In this document: positions 5,865 through 52,386 of the stretch, piece after piece | Layout: each line of letters starts with the position of its first letter | Numbering within the stretch: position 1 is the first letter of the stretch | Assembly (NCBI GenBank): GCA_038065415.1 | Contig: JBBTRA010000007.1 | Span: 34,615 to 98,614 of the forward strand | DNA: 64,000 bases | From: Patescibacteria group bacterium | Lineage (GTDB): Bacteria; Patescibacteriota; Minisyncoccia; Phycocordibacterales; PALSA-1337 | Direction: 5' to 3' | Position numbers and translations under genes: made by a program | Notes under the pieces: model-generated | Databases searched by the model: none | Told to the model about the DNA's origin: nothing | The model's input: only the letters and a program-made list of their open reading frames with translations

Positions 5865-6794
5865 CTATGAACGGGACCACCGGGCAAATATGCCCGCAGG
5901 CAAGAGTCGTGCAGGATCACCTTTCTCAGAGATAGCGAGTTCACCGATTTCAATCTCTCCCCCATGCTTCACCTTTAGATCCAACAAATTATTCTCGTAG
6001 GCAACCGCCGAATACCCCGCGGAGTATCCATTGATGATGAAAAAGAGCGGAGTATCCTTCAAAAGTTTCTTGCAGTCTTCGATCAATGGCAAAAAATGCT
6101 CCTCGATCTTCCAAAGCTCGGTCGCAGGCCCATGGCCGAAAGCCGGCGGATCCATGATGATAGCGTCGTACTTCCTGCCTCGCTTGATCTCGCGTTCGAC
6201 AAAAATGCGTGCATCTTCGACGATCCAGCGTATAGGTTTATCGGCAAGCCCTGAAGATTCAGCATTCTCGCGTGCCCACGCAACCGCAGCCTTGGAGCTA
6301 TCGATGTGTACAACTTTCGCACCTACCTGCGCACATGCGAGCGTCGCACCTCCAGTATAGCCGAAAAGGTTGAGGACTTCGATGTCATCACTTGGCGTCT
6401 CGGAAGAATTCGCTGGCACGGATATTTCCTTCTTCCCTGACAATCGGCCCTGAATCAACTTCTTCATCCAACTCCAATTGACCGACTGTTCGGGAAAAAG
6501 TCCTGTATGCTTGAATGCCGTCGGTTTGATGACAAGTTCAAGACCGGCAAATGAAATATTCCATTTCGCAGGTGTCGCCGTGTTCAAAGACCAGCCACCG
6601 CCCTTCTCTTCGTGAGCGAAGCGGCCGCCGGCTTTCTTCCACTCTGTAGCAGGCAATCGCTTGGCCCACAAAGCCTGGGGATCCGGACGTGCGAGCGTAA
6701 CCTCCCCGAACCGTTCGAGTTTCTCTCCGTCACCAGAATCTATGAGTTCATAGCCAGTAGAAGGATCTGTGATGAGAATGGCCGAAGTCTTCAT
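5865..6794 (-). CDS. class I SAM-dependent (rRNA) methyltransferase, RlmI/YccW-like catalytic domain
   Basis: Has LFGYTGGATLACAQVGAKVVHIDSS and a DPPAFGHG motif. There is no PUA domain. Confidence 0.6.
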   Translation of the reverse strand: MKTSAILITDPSTGYELIDSGDGEKLERFGEVTLARPDPQALWAKRLPATEWKKAGGRFAHEEKGGGWSLNTATPAKWNISFAGLELVIKPTAFKHTGLFPEQSVNWSWMKKLIQGRLSGKKEISVPANSSETPSDDIEVLNLFGYTGGATLACAQVGAKVVHIDSSKAAVAWARENAESSGLADKPIRWIVEDARIFVEREIKRGRKYDAIIMDPPAFGHGPATELWKIEEHFLPLIEDCKKLLKDTPLFFIINGYSAGYSAVAYENNLLDLKVKHGGEIEIGELAISEKGDPARLLPAGIFARWSRS

Positions 6795-7315: not shown

Positions 7316-7901
7316 TAACGAAGAATGTAGGAGTTGAATTCACGCCGAGTGATATGCCCTCATCTCGATCACGCTGTACCCTCTTCTTGACCGAATCACT
7401 TGCGAGGTCCTTCTTGAAAGCTTCAGTATTGAGTCCGATGCGTGTAGCATATCCCTCGAAGACGCTCTCTGTATTCGGGAGGTTCTCCCATGACTTCTGA
7501 TTATCGAAGAGGAGCTGATACATCTCCCAGAACTTACCCTGAAGGCCCGCTGCTTCAGCCGCCTGAGAAGCGATAAAAGCATTTTTGTGCGGCTGAGGAT
7601 ACAACGGATAATGACGGTAAACGAAGCGAACTGTAGTTGTCGACTCGCTAAGCAGGCGTTCTACGAGAGGATAGTATATAGCACATGCCGGACACTGAAA
7701 ATCGCTATACTCGATGAGCGTTACCGGGGCATCTGCAGATCCACGAACATGGTCGGCCTCTGTAACAGGGGCTGGGGCACCGAGATTGAGACCCATCACA
7801 GGAGGCTTATTCATAGCAACGACTAATCCCCATATGATGAGACCGAACACTACGACGAAACCGAGCCAGAAGATGATGCGTTTTGTATTCATACCGGGCA
7901 T
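7233..7901 (-). CDS. DsbA-family thiol:disulfide oxidoreductase, membrane-anchored
   Basis: Thioredoxin-fold protein with a CPAC active site (DFQCPACAIYYP) and an N-terminal TM anchor. The ORF-track N-terminal extension overlapping rlmH is unlikely to be real. Confidence 0.75.
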   Translation of the reverse strand: MPGMNTKRIIFWLGFVVVFGLIIWGLVVAMNKPPVMGLNLGAPAPVTEADHVRGSADAPVTLIEYSDFQCPACAIYYPLVERLLSESTTTVRFVYRHYPLYPQPHKNAFIASQAAEAAGLQGKFWEMYQLLFDNQKSWENLPNTESVFEGYATRIGLNTEAFKKDLASDSVKKRVQRDRDEGISLGVNSTPTFFVNGKAIVNPQSYEAFKKIIDDAARGDSN

Positions 7902-9029: not shown

Positions 9030-10466
9030 TTAGCGCGCCGGAGTAGCAGCTTCTACATGGACATGACCATTCCCACGATGATTCCCTGTTTCACTGGCCG
9101 TCACCAGAGCTTGGCCCAGGCGACCTAAGAGGTCATTATTCTTGGGCTGATGCTCTTCCGCACCGTCACTAAAGAGGGCGCGTTCGCGTTTGAGAGCACC
9201 TGCCGCGTAGGTCAGATCATCGGCCGTGATGAGAACCGGCGTCTTCCCCGAAGAGACCACCGCCAATTTGGCACGTTCGACGACTTCGCGGATTTCCGCC
9301 GGAATCGAGCCGTCCAACTGCTTTCCGGCCTCACTCAAGTCCTGATCCTCAACAAGGAGAACGCCTGCATAATGCTTCAAGAGCCGTTCGGCCGTTGCAG
9401 CATCGGGCGGCAGCATGTTGATCGCAGTATCGATCCGACCTGGGCGACGCATGGCGGCATTGATCTGTCCCGGATGATTAGTGGTGAAGATCACCATCAC
9501 TTCGCTGTCCTTGTTGGTGATACCATCAAGTGAGTTGAGGATGGTGTTGACGTCGTTGGTCCGGCTTTGTCCGGTAACCCGGTCAATGTCTTCGACAAAC
9601 AACACACACGGTTCATACTGCCGCGCCACCTGAAGCGCCTGAGGCAATTCAGCGGACTTGGGCAGATAGATGAACGTCCATCCCTTTTGAGTACAGATCT
9701 GGGCGATTTGCGTAGCTGTCAAGGTCTTACCCGTACCGTACTGGCCCGCGATGAGAACTCCGCGACGAATCGGCGTACCAATAGCGCGCACCGCCGCCGT
9801 GTTCCGGATCGGACCCAGGATACAGGTATCAATATCACGCTGAATCTCAGGGCGAACGATCACGGTCACCGGGTCCGCCGGTAATTCGAGGAACTTGACC
9901 TCGGGCATCTTGCGCACCGCTCCGGTCGCATCGGTCAATTCAATACCGAATGCCTTGCCGCGATACGGACTTTCGTCCGCTGCCAATTTCTCAATCCGCT
10001 CAATCAGCGCACTGATCGTGTGTTCGTTTTTCCCCTGAACATGCGCATGCAAACGGAAGATCAACCGCCCATCGTCTTGGTCCGTCCCGGTCTCAACGTA
10101 GCCACCCATTGGTAGATCGTACCGGCCCCAACGGACTTTCATCGTCTTACCCACACCGACGGCGACAGAGATGTCAGAGCCAGCATTTTCGGTTTCAACA
10201 GTGAAGCCAAACATTGCCCGAAGCGCTTTTGCGAGCGCAATCGCCCCTTCGTGAGGCGAGACATGAATGCTGTGCTGGATGCATCGCTCCTGTTCTTCTT
10301 CGTCCTGTTTCCGACCAAGAACACGAATAGCGTTCTCCAGAGTCATCTTGGCAGGAAGTACGATGGCATCCCCCTCGCGCCTCACGTTCACTTCTGGTTT
10401 ACCGCGACGATTATTGTCGCCGTACGCTGCATCATGAGCACCATACTGCAATGGTCTATTTTTCAT
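9030..10466 (-). CDS. classic-clade AAA+ ATPase with a roughly 230-aa N-terminal domain of unknown function
   Basis: Walker A GQYGTGKT, Walker B CVLFVEDID, and second region of homology TTNHPGQINAAMRRPGRID. It is markedly GC-rich compared with its neighbours. Confidence 0.8.
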   Translation of the reverse strand: MKNRPLQYGAHDAAYGDNNRRGKPEVNVRREGDAIVLPAKMTLENAIRVLGRKQDEEEQERCIQHSIHVSPHEGAIALAKALRAMFGFTVETENAGSDISVAVGVGKTMKVRWGRYDLPMGGYVETGTDQDDGRLIFRLHAHVQGKNEHTISALIERIEKLAADESPYRGKAFGIELTDATGAVRKMPEVKFLELPADPVTVIVRPEIQRDIDTCILGPIRNTAAVRAIGTPIRRGVLIAGQYGTGKTLTATQIAQICTQKGWTFIYLPKSAELPQALQVARQYEPCVLFVEDIDRVTGQSRTNDVNTILNSLDGITNKDSEVMVIFTTNHPGQINAAMRRPGRIDTAINMLPPDAATAERLLKHYAGVLLVEDQDLSEAGKQLDGSIPAEIREVVERAKLAVVSSGKTPVLITADDLTYAAGALKRERALFSDGAEEHQPKNNDLLGRLGQALVTASETGNHRGNGHVHVEAATPAR

Positions 10467-13687: not shown

Positions 13688-13741
13688 CTGATAGATACCA
13701 TGTACACAAAAAACCAGATGACCTGGCTTTTTGTGTACATG

Positions 13742-27871: not shown

Positions 27872-30424
27872 TTATTTGAGCTCACCCCATGTTCCCCCGA
27901 TTGCACCTTCAGCTTTCATGACAATACCCTTGGTATCCTCCGTACTCATCACCGATTCCATGATCTTCACAATCTGCTTCGAGATTTCTTCTGCCTTTTC
28001 ATCCTTTATCTCATACACGAGCTCGTCATGCACTTGGAGTAACGCATGTGCATCATTCTGCAATCCCTCTTTTTTGAGATATTCATCGATTCTGATCATA
28101 GCTATCTTGATGACATCAGCCTCTGTGCCCTGAATGGGCGCATTGATAGCCATGCGTTCAGCCTGTGCGCGGATATATGGGATCTTGGACTTGATCCCCT
28201 CGAAATATCTCCGACGACCATAGAATGTCTCTGTGTAGCCGCGGCGTGCAGTCTCAGCCTTCACTTCATTGAGATAGTCCGCCAGACGCGAAAATGTGTG
28301 GAAATAATCATCATAAAATTTCTGCGCAGTCGGACGGTCAGTACCGATGCTCTTCTGCAGAGAGGTCACGCCCATACCGTAGAGCATACCGAAATTGATC
28401 GCTTTCGCTTGGCGACGCATCTCTGAAGTAACCGTGTCTTGAGGAACCTTGAATACGAATGAGGCCACAGATGCATGAACATCCTCCCCTCCTTTGAAGA
28501 TCTCTATCATCTTCTCGTCACCAGAAAGGAAAGCTGCGATGCGTAGTTCCATCTGCGAATAGTCGAAGCTGCACAGCCTGAAGCCTCTCTCTGACACAAA
28601 GGCGTGACGGATTGCTTTGCCGAGCTCAGTCTTGATGGGAATATTCTGCAGGTTCGGATTGATGGATGCCATACGCCCGGTCGATGATCCAGCCGAAACG
28701 AGGTGCGAGTGCAGGCGATTCTTGTCATCCAAGAGCGGCGGGATAGCGTCGATATATGTAGAGAGAAGCTTAGTGAGCTCTCGATACTCGAATATGAGCT
28801 TCACGATCGGGTGTAAATCGACTAGTTTTTCCAGCTCGGATTCTTTGGTAGATCGTGCACCACCGGCAGTTTTCTTCATACCTTTTGCCGTCAATCCCAA
28901 TTTATCAAAAAGCACTTCGCCAAGCTGTTTTGGTGAGCTGATGTTGAACTCCATATCTGCCAGCTTCCAAATTTCCTTTTGCAGTCGATTTGCTTCTGCA
29001 TGATATTTCTGCGACAAATCCGTCAATAAAATCTTGTCTACCTTGATTCCCCTCTCTTCCATCTTGTCGGTAATCGAAATGAGTGGCAATTCAATCTCTT
29101 CGTACACCTTACGGAGATTTCTTTTGTCGAGCTCGGTATACACCGTCTTGCGCGCTTTGGCGAAATCGTCAGTATTACCGAAATTAAGTAGGTCTTCGAG
29201 CGTCGGGTTAGTGAGGTTTGAGTTGACGAGCCAGAGTGCGAGAAGAGTCTCCTTGAGGAGTTTGGGGTCGATGGCGCTGTTGAATAACGAAGTGGCTGCA
29301 GGAGCAGCGGCCGAAGAAAGCAGATTCGCTCGGGGTACGCCGTCTGCGTCTGCTGACGCAGCGGCTCGTTCTCCCTCGTCTGCACTCAGTCCGAAAGCCC
29401 CCTCAGAATCTCTTTCTTCGGCCGCTGCAACACTGCTCCCAATAACCTTTTGCAACCTCTGCACCAACGTCCTGAATTCCAACTCCGTCCAGAGCGCCGT
29501 CACTTTCTTGAGATCGAGTCCTTCCCTGAATGTCTTCTCGGGCAATACGAACTCAACCGGCGATTTCCTATTGATCGTCGCTAACATCTTGCTGAATTCA
29601 GCCTCCTCCTTATTGTCTTTCAGGAGTTGGACGATACGCGGAGTGATTCCTGCATCCAAGAATTTCTTCTCATGTCCAGCTTCGAGTTCTTTGTACATAT
29701 TCTCGATCGTACCAAATGTGGTGATCAATATCGTGGCAGTTTTCTCGCCGATGCCTTTCACGCCGATGATATTGTCGGATGTGTCGCCACGAAGGCCTTT
29801 GTAGTCAGGTATGAGCTCCGGACCAAATCCAAATCGTTCACGCACAAGATCCTCATCATAGAGGATGGTATCCTTGATTCCTTTCTTAAGTGTATAGACC
29901 TGAACAACTTTGTCCTTCACCAGCTGGAGCGTGTCCATGTCGCCCGAGGCAATAACAATATCGATACGAGGCGAATCTTTCTTCTTGTCTTCGTTCTGCA
30001 CCCTCACCTGTTCGACGATCGTACCAAGCATATCATCCGCTTCGTACCCTTCCTTGCTGTAGATCGGTATATCGAGCGCCTTGAATATATCGTATGACCT
30101 ATTGATCTGCGTGATGAGATCATCATCTGTTTCTTTGCGCTGAGCCTTGTATCCTTTGTACGCCTCATGACGATAGGTTGGACCCTTCACGTCGAAGCAG
30201 GCAACGATGTAATCGGGCTTGAGACCTTCGATAGCACTAATGAGCATGGCGGAGAGGCCATAGAGTGCACCAGTCGGCTCCCCGCGAGCTGTCGAAAAGT
30301 CAGGGAGAGCATGATATGCGCGATGGAGTATGGCGTGCGAATCGAGCAGGACCAACCTCCTGCTTTCTTGTTTGACCACCTTCGTTTCCTTTTTCTTAGC
30401 TGGTGACATAGGGGCATTGTACAC
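27872..30424 (-). CDS. polA: DNA polymerase I (5'-3' exonuclease plus polymerase domains)
   Basis: 850 aa with a FEN-like N-terminus and polymerase motifs (RRQAKAINFGMLYGMG, QVHDELV). Confidence 0.95.
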   Translation of the reverse strand: MYNAPMSPAKKKETKVVKQESRRLVLLDSHAILHRAYHALPDFSTARGEPTGALYGLSAMLISAIEGLKPDYIVACFDVKGPTYRHEAYKGYKAQRKETDDDLITQINRSYDIFKALDIPIYSKEGYEADDMLGTIVEQVRVQNEDKKKDSPRIDIVIASGDMDTLQLVKDKVVQVYTLKKGIKDTILYDEDLVRERFGFGPELIPDYKGLRGDTSDNIIGVKGIGEKTATILITTFGTIENMYKELEAGHEKKFLDAGITPRIVQLLKDNKEEAEFSKMLATINRKSPVEFVLPEKTFREGLDLKKVTALWTELEFRTLVQRLQKVIGSSVAAAEERDSEGAFGLSADEGERAAASADADGVPRANLLSSAAAPAATSLFNSAIDPKLLKETLLALWLVNSNLTNPTLEDLLNFGNTDDFAKARKTVYTELDKRNLRKVYEEIELPLISITDKMEERGIKVDKILLTDLSQKYHAEANRLQKEIWKLADMEFNISSPKQLGEVLFDKLGLTAKGMKKTAGGARSTKESELEKLVDLHPIVKLIFEYRELTKLLSTYIDAIPPLLDDKNRLHSHLVSAGSSTGRMASINPNLQNIPIKTELGKAIRHAFVSERGFRLCSFDYSQMELRIAAFLSGDEKMIEIFKGGEDVHASVASFVFKVPQDTVTSEMRRQAKAINFGMLYGMGVTSLQKSIGTDRPTAQKFYDDYFHTFSRLADYLNEVKAETARRGYTETFYGRRRYFEGIKSKIPYIRAQAERMAINAPIQGTEADVIKIAMIRIDEYLKKEGLQNDAHALLQVHDELVYEIKDEKAEEISKQIVKIMESVMSTEDTKGIVMKAEGAIGGTWGELK

Positions 30425-35583: not shown

Positions 35584-35990
35584 ACGACTAAAAACACCTT
35601 TGACTCCCCTGTCAAAGGCGTGCGGTGAAACTTTTCCCCATTGATTTTATAAACCACAAGAGTAGGATGAGTCCAGATGAGTCTCTATCCGTTCAAACTA
35701 GAGAATCTCTAAGCAATATCTCGGCGCGTGATGCGCCAAGCGAGGTAGAGTCCCGAGGATAATTACAGTACGCAATGCAAGCATTGCAACCAGAATGTCC
35801 TTAGCACTATACCCAAACCTGGGAAGGCCATTGCTTAGAGGTTCACGAGTTCGAAATGAGCACACTCGATTATTCGGCACATCGGGCAAATAGACATATA
35901 AAAATGCGACGCCCTTCGTTCGCATTCCTGATATGCATGTTATACACTACATATGTGACTTCATGCATATCCTAGCATACACATATTAAA

Positions 35991-42218: not shown

Positions 42219-43325
42219 CTATCTGTTCATTGGCATGACGAGATACAGGAATGTCTGATCTCCAGAAACCGGTTTTACAACCACGGGTCTGTTGAGACCG
42301 TTGAGTTGGAGCGAAATACTGTCTGCATCAATCGACTGGAAACCATCAATGAGGTACTTGTAGTTAAAATTGATCTCCATTCTCTCCCCCGTAAGGGCAG
42401 CATCGACGACGGTTTGATTCTCACCAATATCACTATTCTTGGTTTGTATCTCGAACATCTTACCTTTTGGATCTATAGTGAGATGCACTTGATTGAATTT
42501 GTCAGAGAATATGTTTGATATCTTGAGTGAGTTCAGAATATCTTGCTTGAGAGCGACAACTTCCGTAGTGAATGTTTTTGGAATAATCTGACGATAGTCT
42601 GGAAATACTCCATCGATAACACGCGATACTATATAAATGCCATTATTCTCAAATGAGATAAGATTTTTGCTGGTTTTGATAGTGGTTGTACTCCCCATAT
42701 TCTGCAGAACCCTTATGATATCTTGAGTATTCTTGAATGGGATCAATGTATCGCTCAATTTCGAATTATCTGGATTCTTCACTTTCTTCTCCGCTAAACG
42801 GAATGAGTCTGTTGCAACGAATGTTAGGTATTCCCCATCTTTGTACACATATATACTCGAAAGCTCTGGTTTTACACTAGAAATTGAAGCACTATAGGCA
42901 ACCGCACTCAACCCTTGTATGAAGATATCTGGAGCAATTGTATACTCCTGACCATCCGTAACCTTTGGTATTGGTGGAAAATCTTCAGGGGGAAGGGTTT
43001 TTATAACTCCTTTTGATTTACTGGTCTTGATATGAGCGTTTCCTGATACAACCTCTATAGACACCACTTGATTCTGATCCGTTATTTGAGATACGAAAGA
43101 TGAGAGTGTATGAGCTGGTATAGCTATCACACCTGTACCATCTGACTTTACAGGAACTGAGATCTCTACCCCCACATCGAGATTTGTCGCCTTGAATAGA
43201 GCGCTATTCTTCTCTACCTCTATCAATATACATGAAAGGACGGGTAATGTTTGATGTTTACCAGCTACCCTTTCTATGAGTTGTATTGTCTCTCTGAGTT
43301 TTTTGAATCCGATGTCTATCTTCAT
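42219..43325 (-). CDS. dnaN: DNA polymerase III beta subunit (sliding clamp)
   Basis: 368 aa with a three-domain clamp pattern, directly downstream of dnaA. Confidence 0.9.
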   Translation of the reverse strand: MKIDIGFKKLRETIQLIERVAGKHQTLPVLSCILIEVEKNSALFKATNLDVGVEISVPVKSDGTGVIAIPAHTLSSFVSQITDQNQVVSIEVVSGNAHIKTSKSKGVIKTLPPEDFPPIPKVTDGQEYTIAPDIFIQGLSAVAYSASISSVKPELSSIYVYKDGEYLTFVATDSFRLAEKKVKNPDNSKLSDTLIPFKNTQDIIRVLQNMGSTTTIKTSKNLISFENNGIYIVSRVIDGVFPDYRQIIPKTFTTEVVALKQDILNSLKISNIFSDKFNQVHLTIDPKGKMFEIQTKNSDIGENQTVVDAALTGERMEINFNYKYLIDGFQSIDADSISLQLNGLNRPVVVKPVSGDQTFLYLVMPMNR

Positions 43326-43553: not shown

Positions 43554-44900
43554 CTACAGCATCGTCCTCACCTGCGTAATCTCCTGTGACAACAACTGAT
43601 CAGTTTTCATCTCCTCGCGCATCTTTTCGTATGAATGAATGACAGTGGTATGATCTCTACCACCAAGCTTCTCTCCGATAGATGGGAAGGATATACCGAA
43701 ATCCTCACGAAGGATGTACATGACCACCTGGCGAGGGCGCACCACCTCCTTCCTGCGGGTTTTGTTGTATATGCTATCCTCGTCTATGTTGTAGAACTCA
43801 GAGACGATCTTCACTACATCCTTCACAGACATCATTTTCTTTGGTTTAACGTTGTTTTTGAGGATATTTCTGATCTCGTTGAGGCTCAGTTCCCTATTTT
43901 TGAGCTGAGTCTGACAAGCGATGACGTTGATGATACCTTCTATCTCGCGGATATTGTCCTCTATAGATGAAGAGATGTAGTCTATTATCTCATCAGAAAG
44001 GGTTATGTTGTGAGGTGCACACTTACTGCGGACGATCATCATACGCGACTCTTGATCGGGCTCAGGTATATCTATGATCATGCCTGCGTTAAATCTGCCC
44101 TTGAGACGGTCTTCGAGGCCTGGTATGACATTTGGATGTTTATCAGAGGAGAATATGAGCTGACGCGATGAATCATAGAAGGTATTGAAGAAATGAAAGA
44201 GTTCTTCCTGGAATTTTTCTTTGCCAGCAAAAAACTGCACATCATCCATAATGATCACGTCATATTTGCGGTACCTATCTTTGAAAGCCTGAACCTTTGC
44301 CTCTTGAATGGCTGAAAAGAGCTCAGAACCGAACCTTTCAGATGTAAGATAGAAGACTTTTTTGTTCGGATGGAGCTTTTTGATCTGGTTGCCTACAGCT
44401 TGGATGATATGCGTCTTACCACGACCGGTCTGTCCGTATATGAAGAGGGGGTTATATGACTGTCCTGGCGTCTTTACGACCGTCTGGGAGGCGGCATGGG
44501 CAAGTTCATTGAAGGGTCCAACGATAAGGGTCTCAAAAGTGTAGCGAGGATTGAGATTATCATCCTTATTCACATAGAAATCCTGCAACGGCATGGCTAT
44601 TGTAGGCATGCTGATCACGTCTTTCTTGGATTGGTGCGAACCCTTCCCTTCTTCTTTGATGATTACGTACTCAAGGGCGCGTACACGTTCATTCATCTGG
44701 CGCAGGATGCGCAGTATTGAGTTGTGGAACTTCTTTTGTAGCCACTCATGAGTGAATGAGTTAGGGACTCCGAGATATACCACCCCCTCATCTTCGCGCA
44801 GTATTCTGATGTCTTTGAACCATGTGGAGAAGTTTGCTTGAGAAACAGCAGTCTCTATCTCTATGAGTGCAGTCTGCCACATTTTCGTGAAGTCATTCAT
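43554..44900 (-). CDS. dnaA: chromosomal replication initiator protein DnaA
   Basis: AAA+ GQTGRGKTH motif and a C-terminal DnaA-box-binding HTH ([10 protein letters not shown]). Confidence 0.95.
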
Positions 44901-45063
44901 AGGATTTGGTGCCTATAAGTATATACCTGTTTATAGATTTGCAAACTTGTGGAGAACAAAAAAATATGTTGATAAGTTGGGGACAACAAACAATAACATC
45001 AATTGTGCAACACTGTCTTCAATAATATTGATTTATATCGAGATGTGCGGTATAGTCCTATCC

Positions 45064-45198
45064 ATGTCATTCACGTATAACCCAAACAAGCGCAAGCGCG
45101 CTAAGTCGCACGGATTCCGCGTCCGTATGAAGACTGCTCCAGGCCGTAAGGTCCTCGCTCGCCGCCGTGCCAAGGGCCGCACCCGCGTCGCTGTATAA
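45064..45198 (+). CDS. rpmH: 50S ribosomal protein L34
   Basis: [44 protein letters not shown]. Confidence 0.9.
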
Positions 45199-45546: not shown

Positions 45547-46296
45547 ATGTATAACGAACTCATATTTCGCCCGCTCTACAACGGCCTTGTTGGGATTATG
45601 GATCTCATACCGTGGATAGATGTCGGTATAGCCGTCATTATCTTTACTGCGATTGTGAAGCTCATCCTCTTTCCTCTTTCCAAGTCTTCTCTCCTGACTC
45701 AGGTCAAAATGAAAGAGATAGAGCCTGAGGCAGCGAAGGTCAGGGCGCAATATGCGTCAGACAGGCAGTTGCAGGCGCTCAAGATCATGGAGCTCTACAA
45801 ATCCAAGAACATCAAGCCGTTCTCGGGCATCCTCCTTCTCTTTATACAACTCCCAATACTGTTTGCACTCATATCGGTTTTCTACAAGATCATACCTACG
45901 ATTGATCCACAGTATCTCTACAGCTTCATTTCAGCGCCGGACATTTCTGGGAAGATCAATTTTCTCGGCCTCATAGACCTTACCCAAAAGAGCCTTATCT
46001 TGTCGTTGGCCACAGGAGCCATACAGTACCTTCAGTTACACTTCTCGCTGGCCTCGCGCCCCCCTGCTCCAGCTCCCGCTGGACAGACACCAGATATGGC
46101 CACCCAACTATCGCACTCCATGAGCAAGCAGATGAAGTATCTCCTTCCTATTATCGCCTTCGCTTCGACTTACTGGCTCATTCCAGCTCAGTTCCCGCAA
46201 GCAGCTGCTATTATCGCCATCTACTGGTCTACGAGTACGCTCTTCACTCTTGTTCAAGAGCTCTACATACGTAAAAAGCATATTGGTAAGCTGTAG
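45547..46296 (+). CDS. yidC: membrane protein insertase YidC/Oxa1 (short form)
   Basis: Follows rnpA. 249 aa with 5 TM helices and YidC-like motifs (LLLFIQLPILFAL). Confidence 0.85.
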   Translation: MYNELIFRPLYNGLVGIMDLIPWIDVGIAVIIFTAIVKLILFPLSKSSLLTQVKMKEIEPEAAKVRAQYASDRQLQALKIMELYKSKNIKPFSGILLLFIQLPILFALISVFYKIIPTIDPQYLYSFISAPDISGKINFLGLIDLTQKSLILSLATGAIQYLQLHFSLASRPPAPAPAGQTPDMATQLSHSMSKQMKYLLPIIAFASTYWLIPAQFPQAAAIIAIYWSTSTLFTLVQELYIRKKHIGKL

Positions 46297-46297
46297 G

Positions 46298-46405
46298 AAG
46301 CCAGCAGGACACATGCATTTCTGCTTGGCTATGTCGTGTTTGTACACGACATATTAGTGTACCGTTCTGCATAGCCAAGCAGAAATGCATGTGTCCTGCT
46401 GGCTT
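46298..46405. repeat. long perfect inverted repeat: 36-bp arms, 36-nt spacer containing a nested 7-bp hairpin
   Basis: Left arm AAGCCAGCAGGACACATGCATTTCTGCTTGGCTATG matches its exact reverse complement at 46370-46405. It sits between the convergent yidC and the first gene of the T4SS-like operon. Confidence 0.85.
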
Positions 46406-46417
46406 GACTCCTCTTAC

Positions 46418-47713
46418 CTAGTTACTCGAAACGAGATCCAATGACCAGAGAGTCAGGTCATTTTTGTTCATAAAGAAGAGGAAATCATCCTTCTCATCAA
46501 GTCCTAGATTGAAGGCATCGATGACACGATCAGACTTGTCTACGATAGACGATATGAGCTTAATCTCCCCTGTTGCACCGTTTATCTGCCAGATTTTATC
46601 CACAAAAGACACACTTCCCTTGTACCAATCATCTGGGTACGAGCCTACGATTGGCTGACTTGGAGCTGCGCAGTACACCATCTCCTTGTAGAAATTTCCC
46701 CACACACATTTGTCAGACATAGTGCGAACGATGGCATCGACTGTGGTTCCGTCTGCAATGGTGTATAAGTTGGATGATAGAGTTTTTCCACCAGATGAGA
46801 TGAGTACACGCTTGGCGTCAGTGCTCACTTTGGTGCTGATACCTATTACCGGACCGGCGATCTTTCTCCATATACCCGACTTTGGATCTACGAAGTAGAG
46901 GAACCCGCCTTCTGATGCTGTTCCTTTGGTGGTGATGGCTATAGTCTTCTCTTCCGGCCATTCTACATTGACCTGCGTGATCGGTGTGGTGAATATTTGA
47001 GTTATCGACTTTCCATCAAAGCTTGATACGTACCCTACTCCGGTACCACTCTCGTTGATGAGCATGAAGAGTTTGTCTTTCTTTGGGGAAGCGGCATATG
47101 CTATCAGGTTATCAGGAAGCCCTTTGCCTGCGAGCTCATATGGAGTGAGTGACTGCACTGCGGGGACTGTGGGTAGTGTTGAGCTTGCGGTAGAGGTTGC
47201 CACTTTTGGTACGGGGCGGAGTCTGATATCCGCATATACGGTTGATGTCTGACTGGTATTGTCCAAGAAAGATGATCCGATGAATGCCGTGAGGTTCTTA
47301 TTCCATATGCTTGAATATACGCGAGGTACAACCGTATTCGATATGGTCAATAGGTCAAGCTTGTCGCCGTGTGCCTCTATGATGTTCCCTCTTCCTCTAT
47401 CTATCCAGCGCACCACAGTCGTAGTTGCGGTCGTGCTCGCCCCGTATCCTCCAATCGGAGTGGTGCTCAAGAGGCGCAAAGCGGGCAGTTTAACGGCAGT
47501 GACCGGAGTTGTGGTCGACCCTGAAGGTACCTGTGTAGTAGGTGTCGATGGTTCCCCGTTTCCGGTAGGTGTCCTACCGAACGGAGTGAAACCGCTCGGA
47601 GTCTGTCCACCGTCTGGAGTAGCTGTATCCGTCGAGGTGCGCATGAAGAAGTACCAGTAGGCACCGGCACCGAGAAGTATGAAAACCAAAATGATAGGAA
47701 GTACTTTTTTCAT
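46418..47713 (-). CDS. secreted/anchored beta-rich protein (N-terminal TM, Thr/Pro linker, probable beta-propeller-like domain)
   Basis: 431 aa. N-terminal TM then TPSGFTPFGRTPTG, a motif shared with the 58705..59709 protein. Confidence 0.5.
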   Translation of the reverse strand: MKKVLPIILVFILLGAGAYWYFFMRTSTDTATPDGGQTPSGFTPFGRTPTGNGEPSTPTTQVPSGSTTTPVTAVKLPALRLLSTTPIGGYGASTTATTTVVRWIDRGRGNIIEAHGDKLDLLTISNTVVPRVYSSIWNKNLTAFIGSSFLDNTSQTSTVYADIRLRPVPKVATSTASSTLPTVPAVQSLTPYELAGKGLPDNLIAYAASPKKDKLFMLINESGTGVGYVSSFDGKSITQIFTTPITQVNVEWPEEKTIAITTKGTASEGGFLYFVDPKSGIWRKIAGPVIGISTKVSTDAKRVLISSGGKTLSSNLYTIADGTTVDAIVRTMSDKCVWGNFYKEMVYCAAPSQPIVGSYPDDWYKGSVSFVDKIWQINGATGEIKLISSIVDKSDRVIDAFNLGLDEKDDFLFFMNKNDLTLWSLDLVSSN

Positions 47714-49955: not shown

Positions 49956-50429
49956 CTATTTCACCAATCCCCCGCTTGGAGGTCGTACACCTCCTTTGTT
50001 AACACGCAATGCGGCTGTAGCGGAGCTACCTGCTGGTTGACGTACACCGCCCACATTTCGTGGTGATCGTATGCTGTTCGAGAGGAGAGATTTCTGCTGC
50101 TGCTGCGCTTGGATCTGAGCCTCTTCTTTTTTGACGTCGTTATATATATACCAAACATCGAACGTCCAGAAAGGGGCTATTCCCCCGGTGACTGCATCAC
50201 CCAAGGCAAAAGCCATGAGAGATATGAGACGTGTTGGCTTGTTGAATATCGGTATTCGGAAGAGTAGGAGGAGCCCGAGCAATACAGGACCTGTGATGAG
50301 CTCGAGCAACTCGCTTATGATGACGCCTACACCGGTGAAAGTGATCAAGATCTGCACGATATCGACGACTCCAGCTACGATATAGAGGATGGCCCACTGA
50401 ATCGTCTTTTTCTTGGGCTTTTTGTCCAT
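49956..50429 (-). CDS. small polytopic membrane protein (T4SS-associated)
   Basis: 157 aa with three hydrophobic segments and a Gln-rich tail. Confidence 0.4.
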   Translation of the reverse strand: MDKKPKKKTIQWAILYIVAGVVDIVQILITFTGVGVIISELLELITGPVLLGLLLLFRIPIFNKPTRLISLMAFALGDAVTGGIAPFWTFDVWYIYNDVKKEEAQIQAQQQQKSLLSNSIRSPRNVGGVRQPAGSSATAALRVNKGGVRPPSGGLVK

Positions 50430-50445
50430 GCGTCAATTATAGCAG

Positions 50446-50565
50446 AATCGCCCGGCAGGTATGCACCTGTATTTTCTCGATATCTCGCAGAACGATACAC
50501 TATTTTTTAGTGTAGACACGCAACGAGATATCGAGAAAATACAGGTGCATACCTGCCGGGCGATT
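50446..50565. repeat. long perfect inverted repeat: 42-bp arms, 36-nt spacer containing a nested 6-bp hairpin
   Basis: Left arm AATCGCCCGGCAGGTATGCACCTGTATTTTCTCGATATCTCG matches its exact reverse complement at 50524-50565. It lies inside the operon, between the virB4 stop and the next gene. Confidence 0.85.
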
Positions 50566-50571
50566 GGATCT

Positions 50572-52386
50572 TTATCCGGCTTGTTCCAGATCCTTCTTGG
50601 CCTGCTTGATACTCATGACCTGTGCCGGGTTGGTGGTAATGATCTGATCTTCGGTGTATGAGGCGACTATCTTGATGGCTACGTGCTTGAGTCCCACGAA
50701 GAATATACCCTCTCCTACATCTGATTCGAGCAAGAGATACTTCTCTTCGTCGGTGAGGTTGAACGTCTTTTGGATATGATCGATGACCGTCGGAGACTGC
50801 TTGAGCAGTATCTGAATGGAAGAGTTGGTAACGATCGGCAATCCGTACGGAGAGTTCAAGAAGTCATCCACATCCTGGGTGATAGTGGCAAGTCCGAGGA
50901 AGTATTTGCGACCACGCTTGGCCAAACTGAACAAGAATGAGGCAGTATCCTCTGATTTCATCATCCACCACGCTTCGTCAATGACGAGTAAGCGTTTCTT
51001 GAGATTCTTGCGGATAGCATTCCATATATAGTGTGTGACGATATACATGGCGACTGGTTTGAGCTCGTCTTCCATGTCGCGGAGTGAGAAAACAGCGAAC
51101 TTCTTATTGATATCTACGTTAGAAGGCCTGTTGATGAAGCCGGACCATGTTCCCTTGGTGTACTTGGAGAGCCTCTGAACAAGAGAGTCCCCTCCTTCCA
51201 TTCCAGCCAAGACAAGTTCGAAGTCAGACAGAAGTGGTGGCTCTACAGTACGGAAGTCTGCTTCAGGAGTGATGTCTTTGAGGGCGTACGTTTCGGTGAT
51301 AGCGCGATCGATGATCGCATCTTCTTCCTGGGTCAAACCACCAAGCATGATGCGGAAGAGTCCCACCAGGTTGATGATGTTGGAGCGGAGAACATCAGCG
51401 GCTGACTCGTCCTCGCGCGGTATCGGGAGATCAAATGGATTGATATGGTGCTCTGAATTGAGAGAGATGTTGAAGTACTTCCCTCCGGTTGCTTCGGCCA
51501 TGTACTCATATTCTTTTTCAGGGTCAATGACGATAACATCGGTATCGAACATGAGCGTACGCAGGATCTCAAGTTTGGTATTGTATGATTTTCCAGCTCC
51601 AGCAACGGCGAATGTTACGGAATTGTAGTTCTCGAGAGAGAATCTGTCGAAAAGGACGAGCGACGAGTTATGTCGATTGATGCCGTAGAGTATTCCTTTG
51701 TCGGAAGTAAGATCGAAGGAAACGAACGGGAACAGCGAAGACAGTGGGGATGAGTTGAGTTTGGAATGCACAGCGAGCTGGTCATCAGCTATAGGAATGA
51801 CCGATTTGAAGCCCTGTTCTTGCTGGAAGAGTGCCGGCTTTACATAGATGAGCTTTGATTCGAGGATGGATTTGATCTCAGATTCGAGCTTGTCGAGCTC
51901 CCCTTCGTTGTCTGCGAAGAGGGTGATGTAGACGCCAACATCAAAAAGATGCTCCTGTGCCTGCATGAGCTGGTCTCTGAGCTGTTCGAGGTCCTGGTAC
52001 GCTGTGTCGAGCGCCGGATCGCGGACGAGACCCTTCTCTTCCCTGTGTGAAATCTGGCTCTGTACCTCAGCAACCTTCTTCTGGAAATGTCTCAAGATCT
52101 TGGCTGTATCGACTGGGTGTATGAATATAGAGATGTTGAATATCTTGTCGAGGTTGATGATCGGGGCGAACCAGCTTTCATCGAGGAAGCGTGGGTATGA
52201 GATGACGAAGAGTGTACGGCCAACTTTTTCGCCTAGGTTGAGATCCTTTGGGCTGATCTTGAGTGCCGATGGTGATATGACATCCTTGAGCTCCAGCACG
52301 CCGGCCTGGTATATCTCTTCGGGTAGGATGGAGACGATCGGAGATTGCTCGTCTTTTTTCCCGAATAGTTTTCCGATGAATGACAT
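50572..52386 (-). CDS. virB4: type IV secretion ATPase VirB4/TrbE family (ATPase portion)
   Basis: Walker A AGAGKSY and Walker B LLVIDEAWWMM. The start is taken at the internal MSFIGKLF, 8 nt after the upstream ORF's stop. Confidence 0.85.
   Translation of the reverse strand: MSFIGKLFGKKDEQSPIVSILPEEIYQAGVLELKDVISPSALKISPKDLNLGEKVGRTLFVISYPRFLDESWFAPIINLDKIFNISIFIHPVDTAKILRHFQKKVAEVQSQISHREEKGLVRDPALDTAYQDLEQLRDQLMQAQEHLFDVGVYITLFADNEGELDKLESEIKSILESKLIYVKPALFQQEQGFKSVIPIADDQLAVHSKLNSSPLSSLFPFVSFDLTSDKGILYGINRHNSSLVLFDRFSLENYNSVTFAVAGAGKSYNTKLEILRTLMFDTDVIVIDPEKEYEYMAEATGGKYFNISLNSEHHINPFDLPIPREDESAADVLRSNIINLVGLFRIMLGGLTQEEDAIIDRAITETYALKDITPEADFRTVEPPLLSDFELVLAGMEGGDSLVQRLSKYTKGTWSGFINRPSNVDINKKFAVFSLRDMEDELKPVAMYIVTHYIWNAIRKNLKKRLLVIDEAWWMMKSEDTASFLFSLAKRGRKYFLGLATITQDVDDFLNSPYGLPIVTNSSIQILLKQSPTVIDHIQKTFNLTDEEKYLLLESDVGEGIFFVGLKHVAIKIVASYTEDQIITTNPAQVMSIKQAKKDLEQAG

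Follow-up and report, generated by a model that had tools for sequence, protein, structure and literature searches.

What are the two very long hairpins that lie near the replication origin of this bacterium, and what keeps them perfectly paired? They occur in the window, the 64,000-nt stretch of contig JBBTRA010000007.1 (assembly GCA_038065415.1) analysed here, and are its two longest inverted repeats (the runner-up has 26-nt arms at 85%). Our preferred answer, held tentatively and at a probability of roughly 45%, is that these elements, E1 and E2, belong to a family of DNA foldback elements (extragenic palindromes), low in copy number, that is gained and lost at permissive gaps, and whose arms are templated to perfection. 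As judged from the copies compared, the family appears to combine a constant tip with a free but perfect stem, the inverse of the conservation usual in repeats.

Each element consists of two complementary arms around a spacer, which we call the core and which contains a smaller hairpin (type A, the class of both elements, is described below):

46298-46333: left arm of E1, 36 nt, 100% complementary to 46370-46405
46309-46315: arm motif ACACATG of E1, mirrored at 46388-46394, 19 bp from the core, in register with the other type-A arms
46334-46369, minus strand: core (spacer) of E1, 36 nt, reading CAGAACGGTACACTAATATGTCGTGTACAAACACGA
46342-46362: conserved inner hairpin of E1, GTACAC (46342-46347), a 9-nt loop and GTGTAC (46357-46362), from RNA folds of both strands
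46370-46405: right arm of E1, 36 nt, partner of the left arm
50446-50487: left arm of E2, 42 nt, 100% complementary to 50524-50565
50463-50469: arm motif GCACCTG of E2, mirrored at 50542-50548, 17 bp from the core, in register with the other type-A arms
50488-50523, plus strand: core (spacer) of E2, 36 nt, reading CAGAACGATACACTATTTTTTAGTGTAGACACGCAA
50496-50514: conserved inner hairpin of E2, TACACTA (50496-50502), a 5-nt loop and TAGTGTA (50508-50514), from RNA and DNA folding
50524-50565: right arm of E2, 42 nt, partner of the left arm

The elements total 108 bp (E1) and 120 bp (E2) and are flanked by GACTCCTC and CCTACAGC (E1) and by GGATCTTT and CTGCTATA (E2). An earlier note on this DNA had described perfect 36-bp arms around a 36-nt spacer at E1 and a similar element about 4 kb off. 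Recomputing the coordinates and complementarity of E1 (100%) gave the same anatomy, and E2 indeed has perfect 42-bp arms and a 36-nt spacer. Perfect inverted repeats of at least 36 bp are expected by chance about 3e-15 times in the window (64,000 x 200 x 4^-36, with spacers of at most 200 nt). Folding z-scores of the two elements range from -14.6 to -17.8, whichever strand is folded and whether parameters for RNA or for DNA are used, and their transcripts fold at about -87 to -92 kcal/mol.

Could such structures be produced by library preparation or assembly? Amplified low-biomass libraries are known to yield inverted chimeras, which would favour a chimeric inverted duplication. However, independent Logan assemblies (ERR3858120 and SRR32696708) contain the identical arm sequence joined to both flanks, in independent samples and with independent assemblers. 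The sister elements described below come from JGI, ENA and NCBI assemblies of other sites, and the elements lie in the interior of long contigs, with intact genes on either side. The Logan contigs stop about 30 nt inside the arms, which is expected of a k=31 graph at a real inverted repeat. We conclude that E1 and E2 are not assembly artefacts; a chimeric origin is scarcely credible.

The kinship of the two elements resides mainly in their cores. The E1 core (minus strand) and the E2 core (plus strand) are identical at 27 of 36 positions (75%), the two being inverted relative to each other; the alignment has a z-score of 7.9-9.6 against shuffles, and the shared core pattern occurs in the window at E1 and E2 alone (0.01 expected). 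Most of the differences fall in two blocks of about 9 nt, at core positions 14-22 and 28-36. The earlier note had related the elements through partial motifs; the relation holds, and the arm motif is real, but it is short and the strongest likeness is that of the spacers. Its nested hairpin is also present in E1, although the pairing that it gave (GTCGTGT/ACACGAC) is an alternative fold not shared with E2, and the one with a counterpart in E2 (TACACTA/TAGTGTA) is GTACAC/GTGTAC. When folded on both strands, the two spacers form an inner hairpin of 6-7 bp in the same place.

Loci of relatives (labelled L007, L008 and so on) were gathered by exact-protein look-ups and by a VirB4-seeded scan of metagenome contigs, and comprise 1.13 Mb of non-redundant sequence. 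The earlier note had suggested a repeat family and a search for further copies. The cores of E1 and E2 are homologous and further copies were found in these relatives, so the family idea does not fail for want of them. Type-A cores have a 5' CAGA, 2-4 nt, a hairpin of 6-7 bp and a tail of 7-11 nt, for a total of 36-40 nt, and occur in the window (two copies), in L008 and in L024 (three copies). The inner hairpin keeps its position across E1, E2, L008 and L024 while its stem sequence varies (GTACAC/GTGTAC, GGTGTAC/GTACACC, CCCATA/TATGGG). Two of the L024 cores agree at all 37 nt, and 7 bp of the inner arm (GAAAATG) are the same as well, with the remaining arms about 50% alike; the third differs from these at 5 positions. 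A second type of core (54-55 nt) is common to L022 and L039 at different sites (alignment z = 19) and is carried between unrelated arms of 38 and 21 bp. Among the sister hairpins, the cores of any one genome are nearly the same and the arms show no relationship, and homology between copies ends exactly where complementarity starts. The core is thus the conserved part of the family, and the arms are not conserved. Repeat families normally conserve arms, not loops.

How do the arms diverge and yet remain perfect? The arms of E1 and E2 are 56% identical with 6 indel columns, and both elements are still 100% self-complementary; each of the roughly 16 substitutions and every indel between them is therefore matched by a change in the opposite arm. 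The 17 tabulated unique-arm hairpins, drawn from the 1.13 Mb of related loci, are likewise all perfect, with neither a mismatch nor a G·T pair in 593 bp of stem. This absence of G·U or mismatched pairs, despite saturated arm divergence, points to constraint at the DNA level rather than the RNA level. Decayed copies were not seen in the related loci, although they were detectable. A descriptor search allowing arms down to 6 bp added no members to the family and found no CAGA-type core without 36-42-bp arms, apart from one unrelated 6-bp-arm chance match in L024 that was set aside. Pair counting made no use of an arm alignment (MAFFT placed gaps asymmetrically, and the arms do not conform to a single consensus structure). 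Only one feature is clearly common to the arms, a duplex motif (CACATG or CACCTG) situated 17-19 bp below the core, which lies in the same register in all six type-A arms of three genomes.

The arms have no apparent source elsewhere. Comparison with 1.27 Mb of related loci (blastn-short) returned only chance matches of 13-18 nt, an nhmmer profile of the six type-A arms found its own members only and no solo arms, and arm pieces of 22-23 nt from E1 and E2 gave 0 matches in viral contigs (IMG/VR). We rejected the idea that the arms are captured foreign sequence, there being no arm match in the related loci or IMG/VR. Also rejected were mini open reading frames (ORFs) starting from an ATG in the arms, which are not conserved between copies when translated.

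Quasipalindrome correction, or short template switching, is a process known from DNA replication that turns imperfect inverted repeats perfect and can make hairpins in one step. No other ordinary process accounts for 593 bp of stem without a mismatch or G·T, although it is a mutational mechanism and not an element family, and leaves the shared cores unexplained. Template switching during replication could also have palindromised the flanks locally, with no shared element involved. All of the arms are perfect, as a single templated event would make them; the right arm of the hairpin at the L007 origin aligns weakly with native sequence at the same offset in the window (score 84.5 vs 70 for the left arm, p ~0.04), and the outer arm in L022 encodes a native-looking yidC C-terminus. 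However, the test of whether an arm equals native flank loses significance once its eight comparisons are allowed for. Different sites and genomes have homologous cores, the arm motif is in register in six elements, and the whole 108-120 nt is extra relative to tight gaps in relatives. Local palindromisation on its own is therefore very unlikely.

The window is the chromosomal origin region of an uncultured, Taylorbacteria-like Parcubacteria (Paceibacterota) bacterium from Hainich groundwater, the nearest named relatives being Candidatus Taylorbacteria metagenome-assembled genomes (MAGs). The genes around the elements are as follows:

42219-43325, minus strand: dnaN
43554-44900, minus strand: dnaA
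44901-45065: spacer between dnaA and rpmH, with a DnaA box
plus strand: rpmH, rnpA and then yidC (45547-46296)
46418-47713, minus strand: 431-aa (amino acid) gene, the last of an operon resembling a type IV secretion system (T4SS)
49956-50429, minus strand: gene for a 157-aa membrane protein
50436-50444, minus strand: extended -10-like sequence TGCTATAAT, 6 nt upstream of the ATG of the 157-aa gene and directly after E2, not part of the element
50572-52386, minus strand: gene for a VirB4-like ATPase

From E1, the T4SS-like operon encompasses the 431-aa, pilin-like, 341-aa and 157-aa genes, E2, and the genes for the VirB4-like ATPase, a TraC-like protein and PrgI. E1 fills the convergent gap between yidC (45547-46296, plus) and the 431-aa gene (46418-47713, minus), just as the earlier note had placed it. 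E2 is inside the operon, between the genes for the VirB4-like ATPase and the 157-aa protein, and is separated from E1 by 4 kb and four genes. The rest of the window encodes housekeeping genes, including RuvABC and PolA, according to Pfam annotation that covered nearly all non-overlapping window ORFs of at least 100 aa.

Both elements are missing from the majority of related Parcubacteria. The gap between virB4 and the next gene is 7-45 nt in L007, L008 and L010-L013 vs 142 nt in the window. At the other site, L007 and L008 have an ordinary bidirectional terminator (A-tract, stem, T-tract) between yidC and the 431-aa gene, in the position taken by E1, and in L010-L013 the two genes overlap. Given these tight or terminator-filled gaps, E1 and E2 are additions. 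Sister hairpins occupy the gap between virB4 and the 157-aa gene (L024, L023), that between the 431-aa gene and yidC (L024, L022, L031/L032) and the spacer between rpmH and dnaA (L007, L008, L022, L023, L024, L025) in a minority of relatives, and are also present at a few sites 5-8 kb upstream of prgI.

The same gaps are used in relatives by an unrelated family resembling REPINs or BIMEs, of which the window has no copy. Its units are inverted pairs of TGTCATTCCCGCGAAAGCGGGAATCC, in which both halves have a GAAA-looped hairpin of their own and are separated by variable spacers of 17-52 nt. Its copies are:

L023:7329-7444
L031:9154-9226
L032:1395-1467
L056:1637-1706 and 6072-6155
L063:3678-3750, 7577-7649 and 9471-9544
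L028: a solo copy upstream of dnaA

Because an unrelated family occupies the same gaps, we attribute the recurrence of sites to there being few permissive gaps in so compact a genome, and not to a site-specific function.

Searches beyond the related loci did not extend the family. The core pattern CAGAACGRTACACTAN7GTGTA had one match over a genome-contig collection (whose representatives apparently do not include the source species), an armless chance match in a Paludibacteraceae MAG; a looser core pattern had 7 matches over viral contigs, none with arms, and the type-B core had 0 over viral contigs. The best non-self homologue of the neighbouring 431-aa protein is only 66% identical, and no closer relative was found in which arm evolution could be followed.

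The neighbouring genes also differ in conservation. Over the best 120 database clusters, identity to the VirB4-like ATPase is 91% or more; the 431-aa and 157-aa proteins share only 66% and 45% with those of the closest relative. Evolutionary rates thus appear, from these protein comparisons, to differ sharply inside one T4SS-like operon.

Is the proximity of the elements to the origin meaningful? The cumulative GC skew of the window has its minimum at 44-48 kb. The spacer between dnaA and rpmH contains a block conserved across relatives (TGTCCCCAACTTATCAACA...CTCCACAAGTTTGCAAA...TATAAACAGGTATATACTTA), inside which lies the DnaA-box-like TTATCAACA at 44967-44975 (minus strand). Positions 44901-45065 are probably oriC and the dnaA promoter region, and E1 and E2 are located 1.4 and 5.5 kb from the DnaA-box region of this spacer.

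These distances raise the possibility that the hairpins are origin-proximal DNA sites, such as cruciforms or protein-binding sites, for replication initiation, chromosome organisation or supercoil buffering. No copies occur in the other ~75 kb examined. In relatives, the rpmH-dnaA spacer is the most often occupied site, where hairpins abut the conserved DnaA-box block in L007 and L008. The arm motif and conserved core resemble features for protein recognition, and perfect complementarity suits cruciform extrusion. However, the relatives were all sampled around virB4, so that an origin-proximal bias is partly built in, and most of them, including the close L010-L013 and L021, have no such hairpin in the region. 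The window's own rpmH-dnaA spacer is empty, unlike those of L007, L008 and L022-L025; a different, REPIN-like repeat uses the same gaps, and ordinary parS-like sites lie elsewhere. We consider an origin function improbable.

Two further observations concern replication and segregation sites. At 46596-46604, some 190 nt away from E1, the 3' portion of the 431-aa gene contains a perfect consensus DnaA box, TTATCCACA; chance alone predicts about one match of this kind per window. Three parS-like palindromes (TGTTTCACGTGCAACA, GTTCACGTGAAACA and TTTCACGTGTAACA) at L103:208-315 correspond to ~72.3 kb in window coordinates, ~27 kb from oriC, and form a cluster inside the 3' end of a gene of the CCA-adding/poly(A) polymerase family just past the window end.

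Do the hairpins act in RNA? The earlier note had argued that E1 does not look like a plain terminator, and this is upheld: both stems lack a T/U run on their 3' side, and in size they are well beyond the canonical terminators of the clade. Intrinsic terminators have stems of 5-14 bp and loops of 3-8 nt, compared to 36-42 bp and 36 nt here, and intrinsic bidirectional terminators have a flanking A/T tract, while E1 and E2 have neither an A nor a T tract. A terminator scan at the elements returned merely a mini-hairpin inside the E2 arms. What E1 does share with a bidirectional terminator is its location, the gap where L007 and L008 have one. By contrast with E1, a canonical bidirectional terminator is present at 13699-13741, between convergent tRNA-Val and tRNA-Arg genes, with 19-bp arms, a 5-nt loop and an A-tract and T-tract (CATGTACACAAAAAACCAG/CTGGCTTTTTGTGTACATG).

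The region between E2 and the 157-aa gene may contain a promoter. A TATAAT or TATACT box lies equally far from the ATG of the 157-aa gene in L008 and L010, both of which have no element there, and no such -10 box precedes this gene in L007, the closest relative. This suggests that TGCTATAAT is an internal promoter of the T4SS-like operon, producing a leaderless or near-leaderless mRNA for the 157-aa protein. A promoter inside E2 (TAGACA-16-GAAAAT, which scores 9/12) was rejected; the whole promoter scan found fewer sites than in shuffles.

The hairpins could be cis elements of RNA (an RNase III site, a 3'-end stabiliser, or a factor-dependent terminator or insulator) that uncouple virB4 from the genes downstream and close the convergent yidC and T4SS transcripts. 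Both are at transcript ends or junctions, E1 where the bidirectional terminator of L007 and L008 would be and E2 just upstream of the extended -10 and the possibly leaderless 157-aa gene. A perfect duplex of 36-42 bp at -87 to -92 kcal/mol is a generic RNase III substrate, and a motif fixed 17-19 bp from the loop may resemble ruler-type recognition by this enzyme. Against this, the U-tract is absent even though the clade uses canonical terminators, and selection on RNA alone would tolerate G·U pairs, of which, as of mismatches, there are 0 in 593 bp. The orientation of the core relative to transcription is not constant either, being opposite in L008 and L024 at the rpmH-dnaA site. Moreover, most relatives lack the element and no Rfam family matches it. 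The latter result, together with the DNA-level constraint seen in the stems, also removes support from the structured-RNA family proposed in the earlier note. In the window only tRNAs pass the Rfam gathering score. Relaxed searches of the hairpins (E up to 10) gave spurious matches to plant miRNA-precursor models (48-49 bits vs cut-offs of 85-211), and an unrelated sR14 snoRNA match occurs at 50289-50338 (14.5 bits, cut-off 38). Overall, we regard an RNA-level role as the purpose of the elements as unlikely.

Do the elements belong to a described class of mobile or repeated DNA? Miniature inverted-repeat transposable elements (MITEs) such as Correia, ERIC/IRU and RUP are 100-150 bp, intergenic and variably present, are transcribed as long hairpins and may affect transcript stability. 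E1 and E2 are similar in size, intergenic, hairpin-forming and variably present. However, the hallmarks of MITEs are terminal inverted repeats conserved between copies, duplicated target sites and numerous copies that are almost identical. The MITE-like element of the earlier note is not supported in its classical form: there are no target-site duplications, and the arms are the least conserved part (56%). The 81.7 kb of the source genome covered contain two diverged copies.

E1 and E2 also resemble the REP, BIME and REPIN elements of proteobacteria, which are associated with RAYT transposases and are likewise extragenic, sit at gene ends and operon junctions, form hairpins and lack target-site duplications. 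One end of a REP bears a conserved tetranucleotide, GTAG or CGTC (PMC3733652), to be compared with the conserved CAGA before the core hairpin here. In REPINs the arms (REPs) are conserved and the spacer is variable, the reverse of E1 and E2; their stems are imperfect and their copies number tens to hundreds, while the stems here are perfect and two copies occur in 81.7 kb. No RAYT (Y1 HUH transposase) was identified by Pfam among the ORFs of the 64-kb window, and the true REPIN-like TGTCATTCCCGCGAAAGCGGGAATCC family of relatives looks quite different from E1 and E2. Organelle genomes, for example those of sponge mitochondria (PMC2800124), contain families of intergenic insertions that form hairpins, have invaded repeatedly and encode no transposase. 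Such elements are organellar, usually GC-rich and multi-copy, unlike E1 and E2. We know of no report of a conserved-loop, variable-stem rule for organelle hairpin elements. Integron attC sites, which have conserved R''/L'' and L'/R' core sites at their ends and extrahelical bases in an imperfect stem, were rejected (here the ends of the arms lack conservation and every base of the stems is paired), as was a CRISPR array (the repeats are inverted, not direct).

The combination of a variable palindromic stem with a loop of about 36 nt recalls tandem interspersed guide RNA (TIGR) arrays, in which loop units are flanked by palindromic stems of variable sequence; these are common in candidate phyla radiation (CPR) bacteria, and dual-repeat tigRNAs are 36 nt long (PMC12045711). 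E1 and E2 could be solo guide-RNA-like units, either a TIGR stem-loop or a hairpin like the bridge RNA of IS110, with the Nop-domain protein encoded elsewhere. Their perfect, variable stems and 36-37-nt loops agree with TIGR units and 36-nt tigRNAs, and the two cores differ mainly in two ~9-nt blocks. However, TIGR units form tandem arrays beside a tas (Nop) gene, whereas E1 and E2 are solitary, 4 kb apart and without tas nearby: no Nop/Tas-like protein was identified by Pfam in the 64 kb, and three unannotated window ORFs had no meaningful match among PDB sequences. TIGR loops contain two variable spacers of 8-12 nt between box C/D motifs, whereas the loops here are conserved (two being identical in L024) and have a hairpin of their own, which is not a described TIGR feature. 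Direct reading of the window cores revealed no twice-repeated CCA...UG box pattern. Within the window, TIGR-Tas membership was rejected on the array, the neighbouring gene and the loop variability, and a solo guide unit is a long shot. E1 and E2 belong to no described family among those tested, and we found no description of such elements in Patescibacteria or Parcubacteria in the literature.

We therefore return to the low-copy foldback family, against which several observations weigh. The core orientations between virB4 and the 157-aa gene, and between the 431-aa gene and yidC, are the same in the window and L024, which may reflect vertical inheritance from long ago or a function that depends on orientation. 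The shared register of the arm motif shows that the arms are under some sequence constraint. Arms are not shared between any two copies, so no recent transposition is visible, and no direct repeat that would indicate a target-site duplication was found at the arm ends of the six type-A elements. Genes for a transposase, HUH/RAYT protein, IS110, reverse transcriptase or Nop-domain protein were not identified by Pfam in the 64-kb window. Finally, the 81.7 kb of the source genome contain two copies, both within 6 kb of oriC, and such origin-near copies fit a local function as well as a mobile element.

If the foldback reading is correct, elements would be gained and lost at the permissive gaps of a very compact genome, namely gene 3' ends, operon junctions and the rpmH-dnaA spacer. 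We predict that an element folds on itself as single-stranded DNA or as a cruciform, and that a change in one arm is passed on to its partner or removed through intrastrand template switching (quasipalindrome correction). Another possibility is that each copying re-synthesises the second arm from the first. The core, possibly together with the duplex motif two helical turns below it, would be the sequence-specific part. A factor that reads it is presumed to be unlinked, given that cores are homogeneous within a genome and different between genomes. What the sequences show is the anatomy, the core homology, the presence or absence in relatives, the perfect arms and the missing target-site duplications and U-tracts; we infer mobility, templating at the DNA level and a trans-acting factor.

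Transcription of the elements would add a very stable hairpin to the 3' ends of the yidC and T4SS messages and to the junction of virB4 with the gene that follows. This hairpin may pause RNA polymerase or block exonucleases, as a side effect and not as the reason for the element. It probably substitutes imperfectly for the lost terminator between yidC and the T4SS-like operon, and may partly insulate virB4 from the 157-aa gene.

A further possibility, which we consider doubtful, is that the elements are hairpin-borne recognition modules marking origin-proximal sites, with a genome-specific core and duplex motif read by an unlinked protein and with a self-templating stem. Candidate readers include an RNA-guided protein of the Nop/Tas or IS110 kind, a Y1 HUH enzyme or an origin-associated factor.

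Two other inverted repeats occur in the window, one at 35692-35855 (26-nt arms at 85%, 112 nt apart, near a 75-aa ORF) and one at 29304-29428 (17-nt perfect arms, 91 nt apart, within the DNA polymerase I gene).

In bacteria, a long perfect palindrome is normally an unstable structure. The streamlined CPR genome studied here retains perfect stems of 36-42 bp in which the stem sequence drifts freely and the tip is constant, and this constant-tip rule holds for at least two core types and several genomes. The elements also break k-mer assemblies exactly at their arms, and in this way fragment CPR MAGs beside oriC. If intrastrand templating is true, such loci would be a natural record, legible from sequence, of hairpins or cruciforms having formed in vivo in unculturable organisms. 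Should the cores be recognition modules for an unlinked protein, they would point to an undescribed nucleic-acid-guided or structure-specific system in Parcubacteria, and the elements would be parts of a low-copy functional system rather than junk DNA.

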